From Eledone cirrhosa (Eukaryota), in contig OZ024741.1 in NCBI GenBank assembly GCA_964016885.1, positions 214,458,001 through 214,522,000 of the forward strand: a DNA stretch of 64,000 nt, written 5' to 3'. A model generated the notes under the pieces. That model made no database searches and was not told the origin of the DNA. It saw only the letters and a list, made by a program, of their open reading frames with translations. The position numbers and the translations under genes were made by a program. Shown piece by piece: positions 25,454 to 63,463 of the stretch (position 1 is its first letter; every line of letters begins with the position of its first letter).

Positions 25454-25907
25454 ATTTGATCATATGTATATCTATATAAAATATCTAGGGCAAAAATACT
25501 ACATACATATATTATATTCGTCGCTCTAGGTAGAGGGGTTACTTTCCCGAATTGAGAGTTCACAGCTCCGCTACTATGATCAGGTGGTCAGAATGTCCAA
25601 GGAAAGAATCACTAGATAGATTTTACGGGCAAAACAAACTGGCAGTAGACACAGGGGTAGATACCGGGCAACATGGCTGGATAACATATATAAGCTTGGC
25701 AAGTCTCGCTTGGGGATCCAGCCGCATCAATTAGAGACAGCTGATTTTGACAGAACCAACTGGAAATCGTGCTTAAGGACGCTGCTCCTAAGAACCTCAC
25801 AGGAATAAGTGGGCGAAGAAGAGAATATATATATATATATATATCAATACATCAACCCTACGATTCCCTCAGGAATTATGGGACCAGCCCTCCATATATA
25901 TATATAT

Positions 25908-27350
25908 GGAGCTAGGAAAACTATAGTCAAATTTGAGAACAGTTATTGGGTACGTAAAGATAGACCCTCTAACTTTGACATAACAATGGGCTCTAACGAT
26001 TCGGCGGAAATAACTGATATTGTGGGGTTATTTATCGCCTTTAGACTCCAGGAAAAATTCAGCAATCTCCACGGCGGAATATACCGCGACGATGTTCTCC
26101 TCCTAGCTAAAAACCTTAATAACCAAAAACTAGAAAAACTACGCAAAGATATAAGAAAACTACTACTCGAAATAGGACTAACTATAACATATGAATACAA
26201 CCTTAAAGTAGTTAACTTCCTGGATGTCACACTCAATTTAAACTCTGGTTTGATTAAACCGTTTCATAAATTGAATGAAAATCTCAAATACGTAAATGTT
26301 GGGTCTAACCACCCCATCTCTATAATTAAATCTATCCCTAAAAATATTTCCCTTAGAATCTCGAGTCTATCTTCTAACATACAAGTATTTAAGGAACACG
26401 CCGAGTACTACGATAACGCCCTTAGTAAAGCAGGCTACCTCAACAAAATAGAGTACATAGATGGGAACAATCAAAACACCCAAAATAAATCCCACATAGG
26501 TAGATATAATAACACAACACCAAACCACACTTACTACCATAGTATGCACACCAGTAAACCAACAAACAAAACTAATAGAAAGCGATGCAAAGAGTACTTA
26601 TGGTATAACCCCGAATACAATAGCTCCATTAGTACAAATTTACCAGTACTCTTCTTTAAAATAATTAAAAGACATTTTCCCACATCACACAAATACCACA
26701 AAATCCTAAACCCTACCACTATAAGACTGACATACTCTACAGCGTTAAACCTTGAACAACACATAAAAAAGATCAATACTAGAAGGTTAAACGAAAACAC
26801 TAAGAACTTAAGTACAAAGAACACAAAAAAAACAGTAGACAATACACTACAGAACATAAATAAACCACACCTAAGTTCGTCCGCAATACTACTCCAGAGA
26901 AAACCCAACGTACACAACTGTAACTGCACCTATCCTGACAACTGCCCCCTCGGCAATAACTGCCTGGAAAAAAATATTATTTATAAGTGTACCATTAAAT
27001 CCGGAGGCAACGAGTGGTATTACGTGGGATCAACGGCAACATCGTTTAAATCTCGATTGTATAGGCATTCTTACTCAATAAAACACCAGAGCCAAAGAAA
27101 TGTAACAACTTTAGCAGAAAAAGCTTGGACGCTCAGGGATAGCGACCAAAAGTTTACCCTAAAATGGGAAAAATTAGCTAAAACCCAAAGCTTTTCCAGG
27201 AGCCAAAATTTCTGCAAATTGTGTAATCTTGAGATTTATTACATAATCACACACAAGAAGAAACTGCTGAATAACAGAATTGAACGAACATTATTCTGCC
27301 GTCACAGAACTAAGACCCTTTTTTCCCACTACAAGCCGAATATTACATAA
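25908..27350 (+). CDS. Penelope-like element ORF (5'-truncated RT + Cys-rich linker + GIY-YIG endonuclease), Naiad-like
   Basis: FDITMGSNDSAE, GIYRDD, NFLDVTLNL, SNHP motifs; CNC..CPL...C linker; IIY..YYVG..FKSR..H and CKLCNLE. The true sequence starts after the (TA)n at ~25908; no internal stops. Confidence 0.92.
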   Translation, partial: GARKTIVKFENSYWVRKDRPSNFDITMGSNDSAEITDIVGLFIAFRLQEKFSNLHGGIYRDDVLLLAKNLNNQKLEKLRKDIRKLLLEIGLTITYEYNLKVVNFLDVTLNLNSGLIKPFHKLNENLKYVNVGSNHPISIIKSIPKNISLRISSLSSNIQVFKEHAEYYDNALSKAGYLNKIEYIDGNNQNTQNKSHIGRYNNTTPNHTYYHSMHTSKPTNKTNRKRCKEYLWYNPEYNSSISTNLPVLFFKIIKRHFPTSHKYHKILNPTTIRLTYSTALNLEQHIKKINTRRLNENTKNLSTKNTKKTVDNTLQNINKPHLSSSAILLQRKPNVHNCNCTYPDNCPLGNNCLEKNIIYKCTIKSGGNEWYYVGSTATSFKSRLYRHSYSIKHQSQRNVTTLAEKAWTLRDSDQKFTLKWEKLAKTQSFSRSQNFCKLCNLEIYYIITHKKKLLNNRIERTLFCRHRTKTLFSHYKPNIT

Positions 27351-27671
27351 AAGAGGGACATCCCCCAACTATATAAACCTTAATCTAGTTAGAAAAATAT
27401 AAAAACAATCTCTTCTCAACATATATTAATAACCTTAAATTACCATACTAATAATGAAAAGATATGCTGATGAGAATAGGTACAAATATGCGATAATGAA
27501 TGTGTCTAAAAACGTCCATAAGTATGTATATATATGTGAACATGTATATAAATAAGTAAATATATATATATGTTTGATGTGTATAGTTAGATGTAAGTGT
27601 ATTCATGTATTAAAGTGCTTATATATATATATGTATGTATATGTGTGTATATGTATGTGTATGTATATGTG

Positions 27672-27716
<45 letters not shown>

Positions 27717-27782
27717 GTAAGTATGCATGTATACGTACATACATATATGTATACAGACGTACAGTAGCATGCACATATATAC

Positions 27783-27813
<31 letters not shown>

Positions 27814-27948
27814 TACATATGCATACAGGTACACATACATATATGCACGTATCAGTTTAGCGGCGCTAACGTCGCTTTGTTCGTTTGTACATTTAAGTAA
27901 GTGCCATACTAAGAGTGAGAAATGAAATTTCGTTTTCATTTTGTTTCA

Positions 27949-28026
<78 letters not shown>

Positions 28027-28594
28027 ATGTATGTATATATGTGTATATGGATGTGTAAGAGTATGTGTATGTGTGTACACATGGACTAGAGTATGTATGT
28101 ATATATGGGTGTGTCTATACGTGTGTATATAAAGATAAGTTGAGTATGAAAATGTATACACATGAGCGCGTATGTATGTATATGAATACATGTGTGTATA
28201 TATATGTGTATGCATGTGTATATATATGTAAGTATGAATATGTGAATTGTGAGTATATGTATTTTGTAGAGGTGTCCAAATATATTTGTGTGTGAATGCG
28301 TGGGTGAAAGGATACGTACACTTGAAAGAAAAATTTAAGTCTGAATGTTAATTAAGTGCAAACACAAAACCAACCACGCATATCTTTACTATCTCTAATC
28401 CTTCTATAGATTTAGAAAAATAACCAATAATATATTCTATAAAAAATGTCAAAACAACAGATGGGAATCTAATTACTCACTGCCACCAAGAATTCTCACT
28501 GCTATCGAAAAACCACTCCTTCAACTATTCTTCTAACAACTTCACCCCTCCCTCCTAATATTCTCTATAAAAACTAAATAGGTCCTCAGTAATA

Positions 28595-28711
28595 TTATTC
28601 TGATGAAATGACAGTAAATAATAACATTGAAATATTGAATGTCTGCATAACTAAAAGTTTGTAGATAGCTGTTTTAGGTTATGTAACTGTTATAGAAACA
28701 CGTGTCAATAA
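28595..28711 (+). ncRNA. Type I hammerhead ribozyme with long stem II, probable pLTR of the upstream PLE
   Basis: UUAUU/AAUAA stem I; CUGAUGA 28600-28606; AUGACAGU/ACUGUUAU stem II base; GAAAC-ACGU-GUC with palindromic stem III. Confidence 0.75.
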
Positions 28712-28745
28712 ATTCCTTTCAACTAAACTGTATCCATTCAAATCT

Positions 28746-28825
<80 letters not shown>

Positions 28826-37119: not shown

Positions 37120-40100
37120 GGGCCTTGCAACACAGATAGTTCACTTGGACCCAGGGGGTCGACTGGTGGTGCTGGACCTTGGCAGTGGTGAAGGTAGAGC
37201 CTTTAGGCTGATAGCCGCATATGCCCCTTTTGGGACAGAGCGGCCCGACTTTTTCCAGCGTCTGGAGTCTTTTCTAGGGACGTCCCGTTCCCTGCTTTTA
37301 GTGGGGGATTGGAATGGTATCCTGGATGCACGTTGGGACTATGCAGGGGCATGTCCCGATAGAGAGGGGTGCAACAGCCTCAAGGGGTTACTCGGCCGAT
37401 TTGACCTGGCCGATAGATTTCGACTAGATTTTCCGACGGTGCCAACCTGGTCTTGGTCAAATCGCAGCGGATCATCTAGATCGTACCTAGATAGATTTTT
37501 AGTTAGAAATAAGGACAGGGACTTTTTAAGTTGTCCAGAAATGCTCATGGTTGGCTATTCAGACCACAAGTTGGTGACCTGCATGGTCAACCTTGATAGA
37601 ACGCATAGACAGGGCCCCGGTTACTGGAAGCTCAACTTGTCCTTGCCGGCAAGTAGAGCCTACAGGAATCGGATTAGTACGTTAGTTAAGGAACGGTTGA
37701 CTGGAGCGATCGTCAACAGCAGGTGGTGGGCATCTCTAAAGAGAGAGATTAGAGTAGTCTCGATTGAATTTAGTAAGGTTCTAGCTGCGGATAGGAATAG
37801 GAAGGAAAGGGAGCTAATAGATAGAGTAGAAGAGGCAATTAGAAGCGGCGACGTGGCCAGAGTGCTAGCGTCGAGAACGGCTTTGAGCCAGTTTTTCGAC
37901 GCGAAGCACGAAGGCTGCGTTGTCCGAAGTAAAATACGTGCTCTAGGGAACGAGGGGGCCAAAGCTGTTAGCTGGGCCCGCGTGACAGAGGCCAACAGTG
38001 GAACTAAATCCACCATCCGGTCTTTGCGAGACCTGGATGGACGGGCGATTCTTGAGCCTAAGCAGATGTGTGAGGCCTTTCAAAGGCACTTTGCCCGACT
38101 GTTCGGGAGGGGCGGGGAGCCGGTTGGAAACGTGGACTTCGGTCCATACCTCGACGGCCTGCCGCGCCTCTCGGACAGGGAGGCGAAGTCTTGCGAGGAG
38201 CCGATTTCGGCCGCTGAGATAGAGGACGTGCTGGGCCAATGCGGCAAACGCAAATCCCCGGGTCTCGATGGTCTTCCTTACGAATTATATCTAGCTATGC
38301 CGGACTTGTTCCCCGATCTCCTCGAGGCGGTCTACTGCAACTGGCAACAGAACGGGAGAATTCCCTGTACTGTGACCAAGGGCGTAGTCACGCTAGTGAG
38401 GAAGGACGAGAACAAGGGGGACGAAATAAGTAACTTCAGGCCCATAACTCTGCTAAATACAGAGTTACAGATTTTGGCCAAGGTGCTAGCAAAGAGGTTG
38501 GCGCTTGTCGTGGGCAACCTGGTGGGAGATGCGCAGACATGCGCTATCCCGTCCAGGTCCATCCATGACAACCTCCACCTCATGCGATACATCATAGAGA
38601 GGGTTGGGAACGAACCCGGCTTTGGTGGGGCTCTGATCAACTTGGATCAATCTAAGGCGTTCGATAGGGTCGACCATGGTTACCTGGATGCGGTGCTAGC
38701 GGCGGCAGGCTTCGGACCCGTTTTCAGGGGCTGGATCACTGCTATGCACAGCAGCCGCATCTGCTCTAGGGTCAAGGTGAACGGCTACCTCTCGGAGCCG
38801 TTCAAAATCGCGCGGTCCATCCGACAAGGGTGCCCTCTCTCCTCCCTTCTGTATGTGTTGACTCTCGAGCCACTACTGCGGAAGTTGGAGTTGTTGCAGG
38901 GCATCCCTTTGGAACCGGGATTGCGGAAAGCGGTGTCAGCCTACGCCGATGATGTGACAGTAATGGTGTCGACGGCCTCCGAAATCGAGGCGGTCGGCAC
39001 CTTACTGGAGGAGTACGAAAAGTTCACAGGGGCTAAGCTGAACCGGGACAAGTCGATCGGTTTGCAACTCGGCACGTGGAGGGGCAGACCGATGCCCTCC
39101 GATGGCGTCGTCGGACGCTGGACGGAGGGCCCGGTGAAGTTGCTCGGGGTCTGGTTCGGACCGGACCTCCAGGTGGAGAAAAACTGGGCGGAGGTTACGA
39201 ACAGGGTGTTTGCACTGACCCAGAAGTGGGCCAGTTGCAAACTATCCCTGAAAGGTCGGGCGGAGGTGGCGAACACTTATATAGCGTCCGTCATCTACTA
39301 CCGCCTGACCGTAGTGCCCTGCCCAAGGGAAACCCTCACCAAGATGGAGCGCGCGCTCTTCCAATTCCTTTGGAAGGGGCAGGCTCCTATGGTGAGGAGA
39401 TCCATCTGCTGTCAACACCCTTCGAAAGGAGGGCTGGGGATGCCGTGGCTAATGATGCGTAAACACGCATTAAGGCTACGGCACCTCTACGTATTCCTCA
39501 CCGGACAACCGGTGTGGGCCTCGTTTGTGAGACGAACCTTTCCCAGACTCGTCTCACTCACCGAGCTGCAATCCTGGGTCAAGCAAAGACCGAGAAAACT
39601 GGGCGCCTGGCACACTGAGTGTGCCCAGGCGCTCACCGCCCTCTGGCAGGCGGATCCGGTTATCAGTGGAGACTCCACCGCAACATTCTATAGAGGGCTG
39701 GTACGCAGCAGGTGCGACGACGCCCTCGGAGAAGCCCTAGACATGGAGGAGGACGAACTGGCCAGCCTGTTCGGTAGGACATTCAGCCCGGGACCTATGG
39801 ACAACTTCCAGAAGTCCCTGGCCTGGCAGTGCTACCGAGGGGCTTTACCCGTTCGAGAAAGGCTCTACAGACACGGGCGCCCGGGTAGGGACCCCGCCAA
39901 AAAGATCTGTCCCAGATGCGTGTGCGACGAGGAAACCGTTGCACACGCATTGGTACACTGCTCGGGCGTAGCCGATCTGTGGGGCTATGTCGAACAACTG
40001 CTGTCAAGGGTGGGACCGATCCGGTTGACCACCGAGTCTATTGTAATGATCAAGCCGCCTCCCCCATTCAAAGATGAAGCAGAGGCGGTGTTTCTGTGCG

Positions 40101-40587
40101 TAATAGCCATGGCGAAAGAGGTTGTATGGTGGACGCGTCTGAAAGGACTGAGGTCAGGCACCTTTCTCTCTGGCCAACAACTGGTCCGTTTCTTCCGATA
40201 TCATTTCGGAAGAAGGATCAGGATGGAGAGAGAGGTGCTGCACCCCAGTCGTTTTTATGAAAGGTGGGTGAAAGTGGCGAGAATGGCCCGTGTGAATGGG
40301 CCTTCTCTTTACATAAGCCTGTAGGTGGAAAAGAGGAAGGAACGAGGGAGCACCCCCTCTCTGTGCTCCTGAGGAAAAGGGTTGCACACTTTTTTCGGGG
40401 GTGTGTGCGACCCCCCAAGGCGCCTCCTCTCTATTGAGGATTTTGTTAAAAATTTTATTTTTGTTATATCTTATTTTATTTTTATATTTTGTTATTGCCT
40501 CCTCCTTATTGAGGACGCCTTTTTGTGTAAACTCCCCCCTTTGTACTTGTCCCACTTTTGATGCCCTAGTGGCAAATAAAAGAAACT
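37119..40587 (+). mobile_element. Tx1-like LINE copy B, 5'-truncated within the endonuclease
   Basis: Uninterrupted 1059-aa frame, 3' UTR, AATAAA, (TATC)n 40588-40647. Confidence 0.95.
37145..40324 (+). CDS. ORF2: APE endonuclease (N-terminus missing) + reverse transcriptase + CCHC-type C-terminus
   Basis: GDWN, YLDRF, SDHK, GPGYWKLN, KSPGLDG, RPITLLN, KAFDRV, QGCPLS, YADD, CPRC..ET..H...HC. Confidence 0.95.
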   Translation: MDPGGRLVVLDLGSGEGRAFRLIAAYAPFGTERPDFFQRLESFLGTSRSLLLVGDWNGILDARWDYAGACPDREGCNSLKGLLGRFDLADRFRLDFPTVPTWSWSNRSGSSRSYLDRFLVRNKDRDFLSCPEMLMVGYSDHKLVTCMVNLDRTHRQGPGYWKLNLSLPASRAYRNRISTLVKERLTGAIVNSRWWASLKREIRVVSIEFSKVLAADRNRKERELIDRVEEAIRSGDVARVLASRTALSQFFDAKHEGCVVRSKIRALGNEGAKAVSWARVTEANSGTKSTIRSLRDLDGRAILEPKQMCEAFQRHFARLFGRGGEPVGNVDFGPYLDGLPRLSDREAKSCEEPISAAEIEDVLGQCGKRKSPGLDGLPYELYLAMPDLFPDLLEAVYCNWQQNGRIPCTVTKGVVTLVRKDENKGDEISNFRPITLLNTELQILAKVLAKRLALVVGNLVGDAQTCAIPSRSIHDNLHLMRYIIERVGNEPGFGGALINLDQSKAFDRVDHGYLDAVLAAAGFGPVFRGWITAMHSSRICSRVKVNGYLSEPFKIARSIRQGCPLSSLLYVLTLEPLLRKLELLQGIPLEPGLRKAVSAYADDVTVMVSTASEIEAVGTLLEEYEKFTGAKLNRDKSIGLQLGTWRGRPMPSDGVVGRWTEGPVKLLGVWFGPDLQVEKNWAEVTNRVFALTQKWASCKLSLKGRAEVANTYIASVIYYRLTVVPCPRETLTKMERALFQFLWKGQAPMVRRSICCQHPSKGGLGMPWLMMRKHALRLRHLYVFLTGQPVWASFVRRTFPRLVSLTELQSWVKQRPRKLGAWHTECAQALTALWQADPVISGDSTATFYRGLVRSRCDDALGEALDMEEDELASLFGRTFSPGPMDNFQKSLAWQCYRGALPVRERLYRHGRPGRDPAKKICPRCVCDEETVAHALVHCSGVADLWGYVEQLLSRVGPIRLTTESIVMIKPPPPFKDEAEAVFLCVIAMAKEVVWWTRLKGLRSGTFLSGQQLVRFFRYHFGRRIRMEREVLHPSRFYERWVKVARMARVNGPSLYISL

Positions 40588-52198: not shown

Positions 52199-55100
52199 TG
52201 ATAGAGTAAGACACGCTTCACATCGGCTCCGCTATTCCATCGGGATTTACCCTTACAATAGTAAGTACCGGATCAATTTTTCAGTGCAACACATTTGGAA
52301 CACTAATCCCTGTTATTTAGGGAAACATTTTTCCATTTACCCCCTTTTTAGGGGGTAAAATAAATATCTAATTTTGCCGAAAAATTTCGTTCTTGGCAGC
52401 ATGGCGGAAAAGATGGCAGACATGTCTGCCATTAGCTCTGCCACGCCCCCCAAGTTTGAAGAACAAAAAATAATTACAACAAAATTAGACAACGAAACAA
52501 ACAAAGAAAATGAAAAAACAAATGTTAAGGAAAATGAGCAAACGGAAAACAAACAAACAGAAAATAATACAAATAACAACAGGGCAACTTTCGCCCAGAA
52601 AACAAAACAATCCATTACATACACACCAATTGACCTAACGGCCGCCAGAGAAAAACTGGCCGAAGCAAAGAAACACATTGTTTTATGGGAGAATGGAATG
52701 TTTTCCATTAACCCCCCCCCCCCCCCCCCAGAATTCAAGAAAGCGAGAACAGAGAACACAGTTCTCTTCAGAACAATCCTAAACCAAACAAGAAAGCCAG
52801 CACAACCCAGCCAAATGGAGATAGAGTTGGTCCTAAAAGACTATATGAAGAATATTCTCTTCATACGAAAGGACCGACTCTATGGCAGCATTTCGGTCCT
52901 AACAAAAGACAAGGAAACGGCGGAGAAGCTTTCCACTCTCATCGACAACATACAGCTTCTATCCCTCCTACATGGGTAGAAGAACACAGAGAGTAAAAAT
53001 ACAAACAATGCTGCCCACAATGGACTTCTGGTGGGCTATTGCTGGCTTCATAGACATGGGCGAGGACACAGTGCTGTCAATGGGGAAGGCAAATGAGGCC
53101 CGAAAGAATAGCACAAATCCCGGATCGCATCTGGCTGGATGAGCTCACCCCAATAGATATAATTGTAGAGGGGAGAAGACCAGCATGCTATTTATGCATG
53201 GAAAGGGGACACATTAAGGCTAACTTCCCGAAACGTATCCCCCAAAAAGGACTATTGCCCACACCCACCACAAACAGTACACCAACACCACCCACCTCCA
53301 AAAATACACTAATACCACACACAGCAAACAAAATACAAACACCACCAAGCACATCACCACCACCAGCACCAAACACAAGCTCGACACAAAAATCACCACC
53401 ACCATCACCAACACAAACACCATCACCACCATTACCAACCACAAGCACGACACAAACAGCACCACCACCACCACAAAACGCATTCCAAACAAATAATTAA
53501 AAAAACAGCAACAAATCTCCCCCTCCCGCAAAAAAACAACAACCAGACACGACGTCCCTCCCACCTAGCGCTGAAGAGTTTCCCCCAACTTCTGAAGAAG
53601 AAGGAGGAGAAGCCTTCAGACAAGTTTAAAGAAAAAAAAGAAAGCACACACCCAGCACACCACAAATAACCCACACACAAACACCAACTCCAATAAAAAA
53701 CACCCCACCCTCAACAAACAAAAATAAATCTGCGCCTCCCCTCTCCGAAACATTGACAGCATCACTAAAAAAGACATTGCAATACACATATATAAATAAA
53801 GAAAACAAAAAACTGTTTAAATTAATAAACAATAGCCCTTTGGTGCAGACCGAAGGGCCAAACTTTATCTCAACAGAGAACTTCACCCATTTAAAAATGA
53901 TAAAGGTCCCTCTGGACCTTTATCGTTCCTTAAAAGAACAATTTAGACAGGACGTGAGCCCCCCCCCCCTGTTTAAAACCGTTAAATCGCGTCCTCTTGA
54001 AAGATTTCCCCATAACCTCCCCTCTCCCTGACACAACTCCAAACACCCCAACCCAACCACACTCGGGCACCCCCACACCACCACAAAACATCCCTCCACC
54101 CAACACACCTGACGCCATGGAAATTACACAACCCGGAGAGGTAAGTGCTTTTCTTTCTTCACTTTCAACACCAAAATAGATCAATTGAGAGTTGGCTGTT
54201 TGAACGCGCGTGGCCTGGGCTCAGCTTGGAAGCAAGCAAAGCTACTAAGTGACCTCAGGTCACGAAGTATAGATGTGATGGTTGTTTGCGAGAGTCGGAT
54301 CAGCAGCGTGCGACAGCTGGCTCCCGCCTTCGATGACTTTGAGATGCACGCATCTCTCTGTCAACCCGGAGGCGGGGGGGGGGGGGAGTTGCCGTACTGC
54401 TGGATAAACGTCTGGCTCTCGACGTACAGATTGTTCACTCGGACCCGGGGGGTCGAATACTGGTGCTGGACGTCGGAGGCGGTGAAGGCGGGGCTTTCAG
54501 ACTGGTCGGTCTTTATGCCCCCTTCGGGGCTGAAAGAGCCGACTTCTTCCAGCGTCTGGAGACTTTTCTAGGAACGTCGCGTTCCCTGCTTTTAGTGGGG
54601 GACTGGAATGGAATCCTAGATGCGCGTTGGGACTATGCAGGGGCATGTCCCGATAGAGGGGGGTGTAGCAGCCTCAAGGGGTTACTCGATCGATTCGACC
54701 TGGTCGATAGATTTCGACTAGATTGTCCAACTGCGCCAACCTGGACCTGGGCAAACCGCAGTGGACAATCTAGATCGTACCTAGATAGGTTTTTGGTTAG
54801 GAGTAAGGATAGGGACGTATTTAGTTGTCCAGAATTGATCATGGTTGGCTATTCAGATCACAAATTAGTGACCTGCGTGGTCAACCTTGATAGAACGCAT
54901 AGACAGGGTCCCGGTTACTGGAAGATGAACTTGTCCTTGCCGGCAAAGAAAGATTACAGGAACCGGATTAGTAGCTTAGTTAAGATGCGGTTGACGGGAG
55001 CGATTGTCAACAGTAGGTGGTGGGTATCTCTAAAGAGAGAGATTAGAGTAAGTTCGATAGGTTACAGTAAGGAACTAGCGGCGAATAGAAATAGGAAGGA

Positions 55101-57848
55101 AAGGGAGTTAACAGATAAACTAGAAGAGGCGATTAGGAGCGGAGACGTAGCCAGAGTGTTAGCGGCAAGAACGGCGTTGAGCCAGTTCTTTGACGCGAAG
55201 CACGAAGGCTGCGTTGCCCGAAGTAAAATACGTGCTTTAGGAAACGAGGGGACCAAAGCTGTTAGCTGGGCCCGCGTGACAGAAGCCAAGAGTGGGATTA
55301 AATCCACCATTCGGTCTTTGCGAGACCAGGATGGACGGATGATCCTTGAACCTGAGCGGATGTGCGAGGCCTTTCAAAGGCACTTTGCTCGACTGTTCGG
55401 AGGGGGCGGGGGGCCGGACGGGGATGTGGACTTCGGTCCATACCTCGACGGTCTACCGCGTCTTTCGAGCGGCGAAGCGGAGTGCTGCGAAAGGCCAATC
55501 ACAGCCACTGAAATCGGGGAAGCGCTCAGCCAATGCAGCAGACGCAAATCTCCGGGTCTCGATGGTCTACCATACGAACTTTATTTAGCTATGCCGGTCT
55601 TGTTCTCCGAACTCCTCGAGGCTGTCTATTGCAACTGGCAACAGAACGGGAGAATTCCCTGTTCTGTGACCAAGGGCGTGGTCACGCTAGTGAGGAAGGA
55701 CGAGAGCAAGGGGGACGACTTAAGTAACTTTAGGCCCATAACTCTGCTGAATGCAGAGTTACAGATTTTGGCCAAGGTGTTGGCGAAGAGGTTGGCGCTT
55801 GTGGTGGGTGGTTTGGTGGGAGACGCGCAGACATGCGCTATCCCGTCCAGGTCCATTCACGACAACCTCCACCTCATGCGATACATCATAGAGAGGGTTG
55901 GCAACGAACCCGGCTTTGGTGGGGCCCTGATCAACTTGGTTCAATCTAAGGCGTTCGATAGGGTCGACCATGGTTACCTGGATGCGGTGCTAGCGGCGGC
56001 GGGCTTCGGACCCGTTTTCAGGGGCTGGATTTCTGCCATGCACAGTGGCAACATCTACTCTAGGATTAAAGTAAACGGCTACCTCTCGGAGCCGTTTCAA
56101 ATCACCCGGTCCATCAGACAGGGGTGCCCCCTCTCCTCCCTTCTGTACGTATTGACTCTCGATCCACTGCTGCGGAAGTTGGAGTTGCTGCGGGGCATAC
56201 CCCTGGAACCGGGATTGCACAAAGCGGTCTCGGCCTATGCTGACGACGTAACAGTAATGGTGGCGGACGCCTCGGAAATCGGGGCGATCGCCACCCTAAT
56301 GGAGGAATACGAAAGGCTGACGGGGGCTAGGCTGAACCGGGACAAGTCAGTCGGTTTGCAACTCGGAACGTGGAGGGGCAAACCGATGCCGTTAGACGGT
56401 GTCGTCGGGCGGTGGACGGAGGGCCCGGTGAAGCTGCTCGGGGTCTGGTTCGGACCGGACCTCCAGGTGAAGAAGAATTGGGGCGAGGTGACGAGCAGGG
56501 TGTTTGCGCTGACCCAGAAGTGGGCCAAGTGCAAACTATCACTGAAAGGTCGGGCGGAGGTGACGAACGCTTACATAGCGTCCGTCATCTGCTACCGCCT
56601 GACCGTCGTGCCTTGCCCCAAGGAAAAGATCACCATCATGGAACGCATGCTCTTCCAGTTCCTCTGGAAGAAGCGGCCTCCCATGGTGAGGAGATCCATC
56701 TGCTGCCAGCACCCTTCGAAAGGAGGGCTGGGTATGCCGTGGCTGTTGATGTGTAGGCACGCATTGAGGCTACGGCATCTACAGGTACTCCTCACCGGTC
56801 AGCCGGTGTGGGCCCCGTTTGTGAGGCGAGCCTTCCCACAGCTCGTCTCGCTCACCGAGCTGCAATCCTGGGTGAAGCAAAGACCGAGAAAACTGGGCAA
56901 CTGGCACACCGAGTGTGCCCAGGCGCTCACGGCTATCTGGCAAGCGGACCCGACTGTCAGTGGAGAATCCACCTCGACATTCTATAGAGGGCTGGTGGCT
57001 AGCAGGGGCGACGACACCCTTGGAGAGTCGCTAGGCATGGAGGAGGACGAACTGGCCAGCCTGTTCGGTAGAACTTTCGGCCCGGGACCCATGGACAACT
57101 TCCAGAGGTCCCTAGCCTGGCAGTGTTACCGGGGGGCTCTGCCCGTTCGAGAAAAGCTCTACAGACACGGGCGCCCGGGCAGGGATCCAGCGAAAAAGAT
57201 CTGTCCCAGATGCGTGCGCGACGAGGAAACCGTTGCGCATGCACTGGTACACTGCCCGGGCGTTGCCGATCTGTGGGGCTACGTCGAACGACTGCTGTCG
57301 CGTGTGGCGCCGATTCGATTAACCGCCGAGTCTGTGGTGAACATCAAGCCGCCGCCTCCCTTCAGAAACGAAGCAGAGGCGGTCTTTCTGTGCGTAATAG
57401 CCATGATGAAAGAGGTTGTGTGGTGGACGCGCCTGAAAGGTCTGAGGTCGGGTGACTTTCTCTCTGGCCATCACCTGGTTTACTTCTTCCGATACCACTT
57501 CGGAAGAAGGATCAGGATGGAGAGAGAAGTGCTTGGTCCCAGACAGTTTTATGAAAGGTGGGTGAAAGAAGCGAGAATGGCTCGTGTAAATGGGCCTTCT
57601 CTCTACATTGTTCTGTAGGTGAAGAAGTGAAGAGGAAAGGGGGAGCGCCTCCTCTCTGGGCTTCCCCCGCGAAAAGGGTTGCACACTTTTCGGGGGTATG
57701 TGCAATCCCGAACACGCTCCCTCCCTTTTGAGGACTTTTTATTATTATATTATTATTGTTATTCCTTTTTCTTTACTCGATTTATGTAAACTCCCCCACT
57801 GTGTATTTGACCCCTTCTTTTGTGCCCTCGTGGCAAATAAATAGAAAT
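52199..57848 (+). mobile_element. Tx1-like LINE copy F, full length; ORF1 disrupted, ORF2 with one poly-G frameshift
   Basis: ORF1 52401-~54140; ORF2 54185-54390 + 54463-57618; tail (TCTG/TCTA)n 57851-57888. Confidence 0.93.
54463..57618 (+). CDS. ORF2: APE endonuclease + RT + C-terminal zinc motif
   Basis: Same motifs as 37145-40324; the N-terminus lies in another frame upstream of the G-run at 54374-54387. Confidence 0.93.
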   Translation: MLDVGGGEGGAFRLVGLYAPFGAERADFFQRLETFLGTSRSLLLVGDWNGILDARWDYAGACPDRGGCSSLKGLLDRFDLVDRFRLDCPTAPTWTWANRSGQSRSYLDRFLVRSKDRDVFSCPELIMVGYSDHKLVTCVVNLDRTHRQGPGYWKMNLSLPAKKDYRNRISSLVKMRLTGAIVNSRWWVSLKREIRVSSIGYSKELAANRNRKERELTDKLEEAIRSGDVARVLAARTALSQFFDAKHEGCVARSKIRALGNEGTKAVSWARVTEAKSGIKSTIRSLRDQDGRMILEPERMCEAFQRHFARLFGGGGGPDGDVDFGPYLDGLPRLSSGEAECCERPITATEIGEALSQCSRRKSPGLDGLPYELYLAMPVLFSELLEAVYCNWQQNGRIPCSVTKGVVTLVRKDESKGDDLSNFRPITLLNAELQILAKVLAKRLALVVGGLVGDAQTCAIPSRSIHDNLHLMRYIIERVGNEPGFGGALINLVQSKAFDRVDHGYLDAVLAAAGFGPVFRGWISAMHSGNIYSRIKVNGYLSEPFQITRSIRQGCPLSSLLYVLTLDPLLRKLELLRGIPLEPGLHKAVSAYADDVTVMVADASEIGAIATLMEEYERLTGARLNRDKSVGLQLGTWRGKPMPLDGVVGRWTEGPVKLLGVWFGPDLQVKKNWGEVTSRVFALTQKWAKCKLSLKGRAEVTNAYIASVICYRLTVVPCPKEKITIMERMLFQFLWKKRPPMVRRSICCQHPSKGGLGMPWLLMCRHALRLRHLQVLLTGQPVWAPFVRRAFPQLVSLTELQSWVKQRPRKLGNWHTECAQALTAIWQADPTVSGESTSTFYRGLVASRGDDTLGESLGMEEDELASLFGRTFGPGPMDNFQRSLAWQCYRGALPVREKLYRHGRPGRDPAKKICPRCVRDEETVAHALVHCPGVADLWGYVERLLSRVAPIRLTAESVVNIKPPPPFRNEAEAVFLCVIAMMKEVVWWTRLKGLRSGDFLSGHHLVYFFRYHFGRRIRMEREVLGPRQFYERWVKEARMARVNGPSLYIVL

Positions 57849-60447: not shown

Positions 60448-61335
60448 ACCGATTCTGCCAATTCACATAATAATAATGAATTTGAAAACTAAACTCCAAA
60501 GAGGGCTCGATAAGGATAAATGTATATCAGATATATAAGAACCGTAGAGCAAATATTTATTAAAATAACAGATTAAAGTTTAAGCAAAGAATCGCTGCTT
60601 TCACCCGTAACGGGATCTTCTGAAACTAAAAAAGTCAATCTGTGAACGCAGAAGTAAATATTTCAAAAAACGTTGCAACCGGAGGAAGACAGGAAGACGA
60701 TACTTTGGTTCGTGGAAACGTTCCCTGGCAAAGAACAGAAAAAAACGAAGATAATACTTCATTATTTGGTGCGGTGAAAACAAAAACAGGTTTATGGTAT
60801 AACTGAAGTCGTAGAGTTAAGAATACGCAAAACTCACGTATACACATAACCAAATGCACATGTACCAGTATATATAATACATACGCAATAACATATACAA
60901 GCAAATATGCGTACGAGAAAGTATACGTACCTTCACAAAACATACAGGTAATATATACTTACCTATACAAATAAGTAATGGTATAAACATAACATATACT
61001 TAGCTACCACATCAAGACGTAAATTATCCGCGTATAGTTCGTACTACCCGTTGGTGAATAATGTGGGGCTGTAATACAGGAAAGTTTTGTGCAATTTATG
61101 TTTACAAGCCGAAATTGCCTCAGATTTTTTGTTTAAGATGTGGTCATTGGCGTAGAGTATTTATATATATATATATATTGGAATAAATGCTCTGAAATAG
61201 CGATATATATGTGAATATAGACATAGAATATTCGAAAATATTCTGTATGTTTATAATAAACATTTTGAAGACCTAATCGCTATAGAATAGAATACGTCAC
61301 GTATTACAATTAGATTCTCGATAAAAGCAAGGGAA

Positions 61336-61378
61336 GTAATCTACGCGTTTCATTCTCGTTAGAAATCATCAGGACTAC
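61336..61378 (-). ncRNA. Type I hammerhead of the 310-bp unit (also 61646-61688, 61956-61998, 62266-62308)
   Basis: GUAGUC-CUGAUGA-UUUCU-AACG-AGAAU-GAAAC-GC-GUA-GAUUAC. Confidence 0.88.
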
Positions 61379-62881
61379 ATATCCAGTGCTTTTATCGAGA
61401 ATGACACAGCTAGAGACTTATAGAATACTTAGCTGTGTACAGGAACTGGTTTGAAAGAGCGGTTGCCGGTCCGGCAGGAATTAGAAATTGGAATAAATGC
61501 TCTGAAATAGCGATATATATGTGAATATAGACATAGAATATTCGAAAATATTCTGTATGTTTATAATAAACATTTTGAAGACCTAATCGCTATAGAATAG
61601 AATACGTCACGTATTACAATTAGATTCTCGATAAAAGCAAGGGAAGTAATCTACGCGTTTCATTCTCGTTAGAAATCATCAGGACTACATATCCAGTGCT
61701 TTTATCGAGAATGACACAGCTAGAGACTTATAGAATACTTAGCTGTGTACAGGAACTGGTTTGAAAGAGCGGTTGCCGGTCCGGCAGAAATTAGAAATTG
61801 GAATAAATGCTCTGAAATAGCGATATATATGTGAATATAGACATAGAATATTCGAAAATATTCTGTATGTTTATAATAAACATTTTGAAGACCTAATCGC
61901 TATAGAATAGAATACGTCACGTATTACAATTAGATTCTCGATAAAAGCAAGGGAAGTAATCTACGCGTTTCATTCTCGTTAGAAATCATCAGGACTACAT
62001 ATCCAGTGCTTTTATCGAGAATGACACAGCTAGAGACTTATAGAATACTTAGCTGTGTACAGGAACTGGTTTGAAAGAGCGGTTGCCGGTCCGGCAGAAA
62101 TTAGAAATTGGAATAAATGCTCTGAAATAGCGATATATATGTGAATATAGACATAGAATATTCGAAAATATTCTGTATGTTTATAATAAACATTTTGAAG
62201 ACCTAATCGCTATAGAATAGAATACGTCACGTATTACAATTAGATTCTCGATAAAAGCAAGGGAAGTAATCTACGCGTTTCATTCTCGTTAGAAATCATC
62301 AGGACTACATATCCAGTGCTTTTATCGAGAATGACACAGCTAGAGACTTATAGAATACTTAGCTGTGTACAGGAACTGGTTTGAAAGAGCGGTTGCCGGT
62401 CCGGCAGAAATTAGAAATTGGAATAAATGCTCTGAAATAGCGATATATATGTGAATATAGACATAGAATATTCGAAAATATTCTGTATGTTTATAATAAA
62501 CATTTTGAAGACCTAATCGCTATAGAATAGAATACGTCACGTATTACAATTAGATTCTCGATAAAAGCAAGGGAAGTAATCTACGCGAGAATGAAACGCG
62601 TAGATTACTTCCCTTGCTTTTATCGAGAATCTAATTGTAATACGTGACGTATTCTATTCTATAGCGATTAGGTCTTCAAAATGTTTATTATAAACATACA
62701 GAATATTTTCGAATATTCTATGTCTATATTCACATATATATCGCTATTTCAGAGCATTTATTCCAATTTCTAATTTCTGCCGGACCGGCAACCGCTCTTT
62801 CAAACCAGTTCCTGTACACAGCTAAGTATTCTATAAGTCTCTAGCTGTGTCATTCTCGATAAAAGTAAAAGCACTGGATAT

Positions 62882-62924
62882 GTAGTCCTGATGATTTCTA
62901 ACGAGAATGAAACGCGTAGATTAC
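62882..62924 (+). ncRNA. Type I hammerhead in the inverted copies (also 63192-63234)
   Basis: Same sequence on the + strand; predicted cleavage after 62918 and 63228, 310 nt apart. Confidence 0.88.
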
Positions 62925-63354
62925 TTCCCTTGCTTTTATCGAGAATCTAATTGTAATACGTGACGTATTCTATTCTATAGCGATTAGGTCTTCAAAATGT
63001 TTATTATAAACATACAGAATATTTTCGAATATTCTATGTCTATATTCACATATATATCGCTATTTCAGAGCATTTATTCCAATTTCTAATTTCTGCCGGA
63101 CCGGCAACCGCTCTTTCAAACCAGTTCCTGTACACAGCTAAGTATTCTATAAGTCTCTAGCTGTGTCATTCTCGATAAAAGCACTGGATATGTAGTCCTG
63201 ATGATTTCTAACGAGAATGAAACGCGTAGATTACTTCCCTTGCTTTTATCGAGAATCTAATTGTAATACGTGACGTATTCTATTCTATAGCGATTAGGTC
63301 TTCAAAATGTTTATTATAAACATACAGAATATTTTCGAATATTCTATGTCTATA

Positions 63355-63403
<49 letters not shown>

Positions 63404-63463
63404 TTATTGAGTAAAATGACAGGAGGCTGGACTGGTGAAATTCCTTCAAAGATTTATTATAGC

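Follow-up and report, generated by a model that had tools for sequence, protein, structure and literature searches.

The stretch of 64,000 nucleotides of the Eledone cirrhosa genome analysed here (contig OZ024741.1, positions 214,458,001 to 214,522,000; hereafter the window) carries a single insertion of a very young repeat family. Our preferred explanation, which we consider probable, is that this is a young 310-nt non-LTR retrozyme in a (TA)n repeat, for which a Penelope-like reverse transcriptase (RT)/endonuclease copied a predicted monomeric RNA circle repeatedly from both nicked strands. By the features tested in the sequence, the family is a non-LTR retrozyme that behaves like a non-autonomous passenger of Penelope-like elements (PLEs), with cleavage and circle formation predicted. 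A preliminary description of this DNA had proposed a very recent single insertion, copied from RNA, of an active retrozyme family; a young, dispersed family of this kind is supported by the genome-wide units, their ends and the variant pattern. The inversion together with two end positions is a family-wide Penelope-type signature that goes beyond that account.

At this locus, Tandem Repeats Finder delimits two blocks (61177-62587, period 310, 4.6 copies, 99%; 62586-63367, 2.5 copies) that are 99-100% complementary to each other, in agreement with the approximately 4.5 direct and 2.5 inverted copies of a 310-bp unit originally described. The left arm (61177..62587, minus strand) measures 1,411 bp or 4.55 units and the right arm (62586..63358, plus strand) approximately 2.5 units. 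They meet head-to-head at 62586..62587 with a 2-nt microhomology (CG), a junction whose nearness to the hammerhead is atypical of the family. The ribozyme (sense) strand is the minus strand in the left block and the plus strand in the right, and therefore runs outward from the centre in both, with the RNA 3' ends directed into the flanks. Unit position 1 is the base that follows the predicted cut (62919); the reference unit, 62919..63228 on the plus strand, is 310 nt long with 34.5% GC and extends from one predicted cleavage site to the next. On this scale the outer end of the left arm lies at position 165 (the tail end) and that of the right arm at position 130 (the short end), so that a 35-bp 'tail' (61177..61211, minus strand; unit positions 131-165) is present on the left outer end only. 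The arms are bordered by (TA)n target repeats at 61161..61176 and 63359..63407, and the bases at 63359-63367, on the edge of the right arm, are compatible with both the unit and the TA repeat. As first reported, one substitution (61478, T174C on the sense strand of the unit, left arm only) and one 6-nt duplication (62860..62871, plus strand, right arm only, inside the outer stem I of the core at 62888..62918) are the sole internal differences between units. The absence of a long ORF is likewise borne out: the longest stop-free frame in the unit is 59 aa, and the RT plus GIY-YIG ORF of an autonomous PLE is absent.

Six intact hammerhead cores were identified, four on the minus strand of the left block (61342..62302; starts 62302, 61992, 61682 and 61372) and two on the plus strand of the right block, the first of these at 62888..62918. 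Each unit thus includes the type I hammerhead initially recognised, with its 6-bp stem I and its palindromic ACGCGU stem III. In the last unit (63168..63256, plus strand, predicted cut after 63228) the motif consists of an inner stem I of 6 bp (63192-63197/63229-63234), extended by 3 bp more and then by an outer stem I of 16 perfect bp (63168-63183/63241-63256), the CUGAUGA box (63198-63204), stem II (63205-63218; UUCU/AGAA with a U.U at its base, positions 10.1/11.1) and GAAAC-GC-GUA (63219-63228). Stem III is a single C-G pair round GC within the palindrome, and stem II is predicted to be weak (pair probability 0.13). The exact 38-nt core has 4,054 matches in the 3.0-Gb genome against none for the reversed control, and the unit folds with z = -3.9 (1/100 shuffles equally good); the motif is therefore beyond chance. 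The Rfam search suggested at the outset gave a mixed answer: no hammerhead at E<=1 between 58 and 64 kb, where only hairpin-type matches appeared, and a weak Hammerhead_HH9 match (15.8 bits, E 0.15, below the gathering score of 52) when 151 nt were searched. By analogy with the one-pair palindromic stems III treated as a basis for dimer cleavage in the available portions of PMC4209133 and PMC7229834, cleavage of this hammerhead as a dimer is plausible.

The family has the features of a non-LTR retrozyme: a tandem 310-bp unit of low GC content, no ORF, and a hammerhead core with three stems in each unit. It is dispersed and multicopy, without LTR-type structure as judged from arrays that pass straight into (TA)n. 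Hammerhead viroids and viroid-like satellite RNAs resemble the unit in size, self-paired fold and hammerhead. Hammerhead viroids, however, carry hammerheads in both polarities and have no DNA stage, whereas the present unit is genome-encoded, has its hammerhead on one polarity and spreads through DNA copies, with no sign of RNA-to-RNA replication or infectivity; the earlier term 'viroid-like' is thus apt for size and fold, and not for polarity or mode of propagation. The metazoan non-LTR retrozymes of coral, mussel and axolotl, as presented in the accessible parts of PMC7229834, similarly comprise tandem units of 150-450 bp with GC under 50%, one type I hammerhead per unit, no ORF and thousands of copies, and the basal U.U of stem II recurs in axolotl HHR_Amex2. 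For these metazoan retrozymes both cleavage and circles were demonstrated; for the Eledone unit they are predicted. The metazoan elements are described there as plain tandems, with no inverted arms, tail or (TA)n targeting reported in those parts. The same source (2020) treated circular RNAs as hypothetical templates and PLEs as a strong candidate mobiliser.

A genome-wide search for dispersed multimers, recommended in the preliminary description, revealed at least 16,334 units (31-nt mid-unit probe, 3.0-Gb genome; reversed control 0), and end probes found 1,226 exact tail ends and 1,234 exact short ends, some 1,230 of each kind. Since the tail probe recovers 7/10 two-arm loci found by another route, the insertions probably number closer to 1,700. 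The size of the genome, 3.0 Gb, and its TA-richness are in keeping with the cephalopod host first suspected.

The anatomy of individual insertions was examined in 71 regions. Besides the window, these comprise 10 loci drawn from the initial 100 matches to the core and 60 drawn from the initial 100 matches to the tail end, all on a single contig (C1). These regions contain 73 elements, of which 64 are two-armed, every one in the order minus then plus. Of the nine listed as one-armed, one meets an N gap, three leave the fetched stretch, with a correctly oriented short end beyond each, and five are apparently truly one-armed. In every one of the 60 complete two-arm elements the outer ends fall into two ranges of unit position, one end at 125-141 and its counterpart at 160-172, leaving a 30-40 bp tail at one end only. 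Fifty of them were selected via the tail end, so that only their opposite end is a free test; the 10 selected otherwise also show both end positions (10/10). The flanks are TA-rich at 117 of 120 ends. Seven elements have duplicated imperfect TA repeats, and no target duplication other than TA was seen among the examined elements. The median element length is 2.4 kb, with one arm exceeding 6.6 kb. Of the 60 inner junctions, 32 have an overlap of 1-5 nt between the arms and one an overlap of 16 nt; 7 are blunt and 20 contain extra bases. A ribozyme cut as the origin of the centre junction is rejected on the even distribution of inner ends round the unit (5/120 lie no more than 10 nt from the cut site, where 8 would be expected). 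Nor do the data support one arm being regularly a fold-back copy of its partner: the tail arm is the longer in only 38/60, and stray changes are not shared. The inversion is a rule of the family and no accident.

This arrangement, with inverted arm (64/73), one-end tail (60/60) and (TA)n flanks (117/120), is that of EN+ PLEs. The accessible text of PMC8557442 gives two features of PLEs, an inverted copy truncated at its 5' end and a one-sided tail of 30-40 bp, and names (TA)n as the target of Hydra-clade PLEs. The portions of PMC11167929 available, on the anole element Poseidon PAc, describe a PLE protein that cuts and extends both strands, the tail lying between two RT start sites, and report that the PLE's own hammerhead is dispensable for insertion in vitro. 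The inverted 5'-truncated arm, one-end tail, AT-rich or (TA)n target and hammerhead of these elements (PMC8557442, PMC11167929, in the same portions) are all found here, and two start sites are predicted. The retrozyme differs in its lack of an ORF, its unit of 310 nt against approximately 3.6 kb, its arms of up to 20 or more units and its long canonical-type stem I. The non-autonomous PLEs of the Chlamys group, such as MRC1, are likewise non-coding PLE passengers with multicopy head-to-tail insertions; they belong, however, to a green-algal clade with N-terminal EN, their 3' end resembles that of autonomous partners, and no hammerhead circle is mentioned in the parts of PMC8557442 to hand.

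The distribution of substitutions bears on the role of the ribozyme. Changes were classed against the window unit, each distinct variant being counted once. Among 24 distinct inherited substitutions, seven fall in hammerhead stems, all seven keep pairing and none is in the core; the remainder include free position 7 and loop II. The 93 singletons include 23 in core or stems, of which only 3/23 keep pairing (Fisher p 6e-5 against the inherited changes). Mutants of G12 (8 units genome-wide, with a probe that covers only some haplotypes) and of G8 (24 units) form no run of adjacent units with the change and never fill an array. Among the 100 matches listed out of 104, T287G, a change that pairs 10.1 with 11.1, occupies 92 units spread over 11 arrays, and T287C, which does not pair, only three units. 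This pattern shows purifying selection on the predicted hammerhead core and stems. Broken-core copies are not passed on, so that the predicted cleavage would be part of the cycle. A>G changes account for 8/24 inherited variants and 6/93 singletons (29 to 73 elements); this excess could reflect RNA editing, and wobble-pair tolerance explains it equally well.

The nature of the template can be approached through variants within arrays, called against the window unit in 59 complete elements (L042, with an internal rearrangement, was left out). An array-wide variant is present in both arms of 38/59 elements, and some variants found in only one of 51 elements occupy 12-19 units (L126, L131, L098 and L052). 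Minority substitutions number 130 in 200,461 aligned bases; of the 55 in the span common to both arms, 49 are arm-specific and the six shared ones all come from one locus, L120. A new variant in both arms implies a bottleneck of one unit, and arms of 20 units copied from a one-unit template would in turn imply a circle. The variant pattern and the position of inner ends away from the cut site are as expected from repeated copying of a monomeric, likely circular, predicted RNA. Of the 'circular or multimeric' source left open at first, it is the monomeric circle that the variants favour. Some arrays depart from this scheme. In L120 both arms change haplotype in register after unit 2 (the six shared changes), L061 has a haplotype switch in one arm, and in L051, L053 and L106 a variant recurs in non-adjacent units of one arm. 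Because of the L061 switch and these recurrences, one molecule per insertion is not universal. The switches and repeats could result from circle-to-circle template switching, from some linear multimers, from later unit-to-unit copying or from assembly error. The same rare change was also seen 5 or 10 units apart in several arrays (G000:C1:125785593, C3:268465986, C5:55928993, L051 and L106), and recurrences elsewhere have other spacings.

An uncut linear multimer transcribed from a genomic array might instead have been the template for the same PLE machinery, the hammerhead being slow or incidental. We regard this as unlikely but deserving of attention. It accounts as easily for the in-register switch in both arms of L120; the U.U in stem II and the one-pair stem III predict slow cleavage, similar axolotl motifs being weak as monomers (PMC7229834, accessible parts); and uncut RNA is the main substrate of the anole PLE in vitro in the available account (PMC11167929). 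Mutations of a source array would, however, be expected in register, and 49/55 are not, with the other six from one locus. Moreover, rare variants that fill whole arrays need a one-unit bottleneck, and core mutants are never array-wide.

Another possibility, distinctly improbable in our estimation, is that insertions begin as short copies and lengthen afterwards on the spot as satellite DNA, through unequal exchange, conversion or DNA circles. Local tandem expansion of this kind is proposed for vertebrate retrozymes in the accessible text of bioRxiv 10.64898/2026.07.22.740005, whereas the present anatomy points to arrays made at insertion. Recurrence of variants in non-adjacent units of one arm (L051, L053 and L106), some core-mutant pairs 5 or 10 units apart and the mostly short arms of older sister families would suit such growth. 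Yet the oppositely oriented arms are both long and have variants in common, minority substitutions are few for their 200,461 aligned bases, and local DNA amplification would not remove catalytic-G mutants. It may nevertheless alter arrays after insertion.

Among the PLEs of the genome is a young family of Hydra type, whose intact frame encodes 785 aa. It has the Hydra motifs RWK, DKT and CxCx5C, and 150/150 scored matches are 100% identical over the C-terminal 147 aa. In the three copies with both outer ends visible, of 10 examined, its ends lie at 152 and 270, one each, which gives a tail of 118 bp against 35 bp in the retrozyme. Despite the same rule, this difference in tail length means that the young family is not established as the partner. 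A 5'-truncated copy of it lies in the window at 25809-28751 (plus strand), with a decayed-looking hammerhead core at 28600, and the family is possibly the most active PLE in the genome. Several further Hydra-like PLE families exist. A partner was not found among the PLE copies sampled, which represent some of the PLE families of the genome: the pLTRs of three families gave z <= 1.8 against the unit, and the regions up- and downstream of other PLE copies had no match to it. One family compared with an older sister unit gave z 2.8-2.9 on both strands, too weak to claim. Pfam had no informative match for three PLE ORFs. The tail motif precedes a PLE N-terminal motif in 13 places that look like fortuitous neighbours on either side of TA repeats (three adjoin PLE fragments), and a relaxed motif gave two matches in another PLE family, antisense in the one inspected.

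A LINE enzyme could in principle move the RNA, with the inversion arising by twin priming. Twin priming also yields head-to-head arms with microhomology, and the window has long LINE-type ORFs at 37121-40324 and 54343-57618, within a cluster of LINE-type elements at 35266-57618 (plus strand) with ORF1 and ORF2 frames, of which two exceed 1,060 aa. In twin priming, however, the second primer is internal and variable, whereas both outer ends of the retrozyme are fixed 35 nt apart. The element has no 3' tail of its own, whether poly(A) or simple repeat, and a PLE in the same genome follows the same end rule, all of which makes a LINE origin highly unlikely. The chance of an assembly or library artefact (fold-back chimera or collapsed repeat) is close to nil: near-perfect palindromic arrays are hard to assemble and per-arm unit counts may be off, but flanks differ from locus to locus, haplotypes are locus-specific, the ends are biologically patterned, and four public sequencing runs cover the unit, one with a loose end into TA at unit position 170. 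Six public runs, none on record as RNA, contain 80-89% of the sampled words; in two of them, X1 and X2, the unit forms one 340-nt contig (310+30) without differences, with which a circle or tandem DNA is equally compatible, the run type being unrecorded.

It is proposed, then, that an array is transcribed and that its hammerheads would cut after GUA, probably as dimers via ACGCGU, a host ligase closing the 310-nt monomer. A PLE protein, probably from the Hydra clade that targets (TA)n, would nick both strands of a TA repeat and prime two cDNAs, one at unit position ~165 and one at ~130. Each cDNA would roll round the circle for under one to more than 20 turns before its 3' end is joined to that of its counterpart, often through 1-5 nt of microhomology. 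With rolling at the time of insertion, the array would be made at insertion and not by later satellite growth. The weak predicted stem II, the five apparently one-armed elements (5/73), the haplotype switches and recurrent variants, the failure to find a partner among the sampled PLEs, the 118-bp tail of the young family and the in vitro dispensability of the anole PLE's hammerhead count against this proposal.

Several related elements were noted. Older sister families with units of ~310-320 nt (L033:4370-4720, L108, L121, L129 and L171-L200; 4,568 matches for their tail motif) have the region round both ends in common with the unit and the same two stop places; their hammerheads are different or decayed and their arms mostly short. 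One aligns to the unit at about 66-67% overall. Retention of the end region across sister families suggests a conserved signal, probably for RT initiation. In L184, L185 and L200, sister-family arms are joined to an unrelated segment of ~55 nt at the outer end or upstream, perhaps a template jump from another element. Two more type I hammerhead families with an ACGCGU stem III were seen (L062:1501 and L081:1501), the latter with a tail-like motif at its end, next to TA. Just right of the array (63519, minus strand), in a flank that is itself a repeat, lies another hammerhead-like core, whose stem II is long.

The class of element is known; the family is apparently undescribed. Our literature search, with subscription papers, Repbase and supplements largely outside its scope, found no description of an octopus or cephalopod retrozyme. 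Nor did the literature, in the portions accessible, yield two-arm and tail anatomy in retrozymes; supplements may list the family. The vertebrate study (bioRxiv 10.64898/2026.07.22.740005) reaches, in its available text, the same conclusion that retrozymes depend on PLEs. Its evidence there is co-occurrence, pLTR phylogeny and the finding of pLTR homology, in contrast to the insertion anatomy used here. That text names the mechanism as future work and contains no occurrence of 'mollusc' or of 'tail'.

A more far-reaching interpretation, which we offer tentatively and with some doubt, is that every insertion preserves in DNA a single RNA circle, taken from a pool selected for catalysis and read by a Penelope enzyme with two heads. 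Two RT sites 35 nt apart would roll round one circle into opposite strands of the TA repeat, and both may change circle together, as in L120; the pool may acquire changes at the RNA level, to which the A>G excess (8/24 inherited against 6/93 singletons) could belong. If so, the genome would contain more than a thousand read-outs, each of a single molecule, from a ribozyme population, and the formation of PLE inverted arms and tails would be explained.

The ~5 Mb of near-identical palindromic arrays in this genome are relevant to assembly and repeat annotation. The family provides insertion-level evidence, in one genome, for both PLE mobilisation and a circular template, and makes exact predictions for a purified PLE protein: RT starts at ~130 and ~165, a TA target, and activity on both strands. 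The two-armed insertions of this retrozyme also bear on the unexplained origin of the inverted arms and tails of PLEs themselves.
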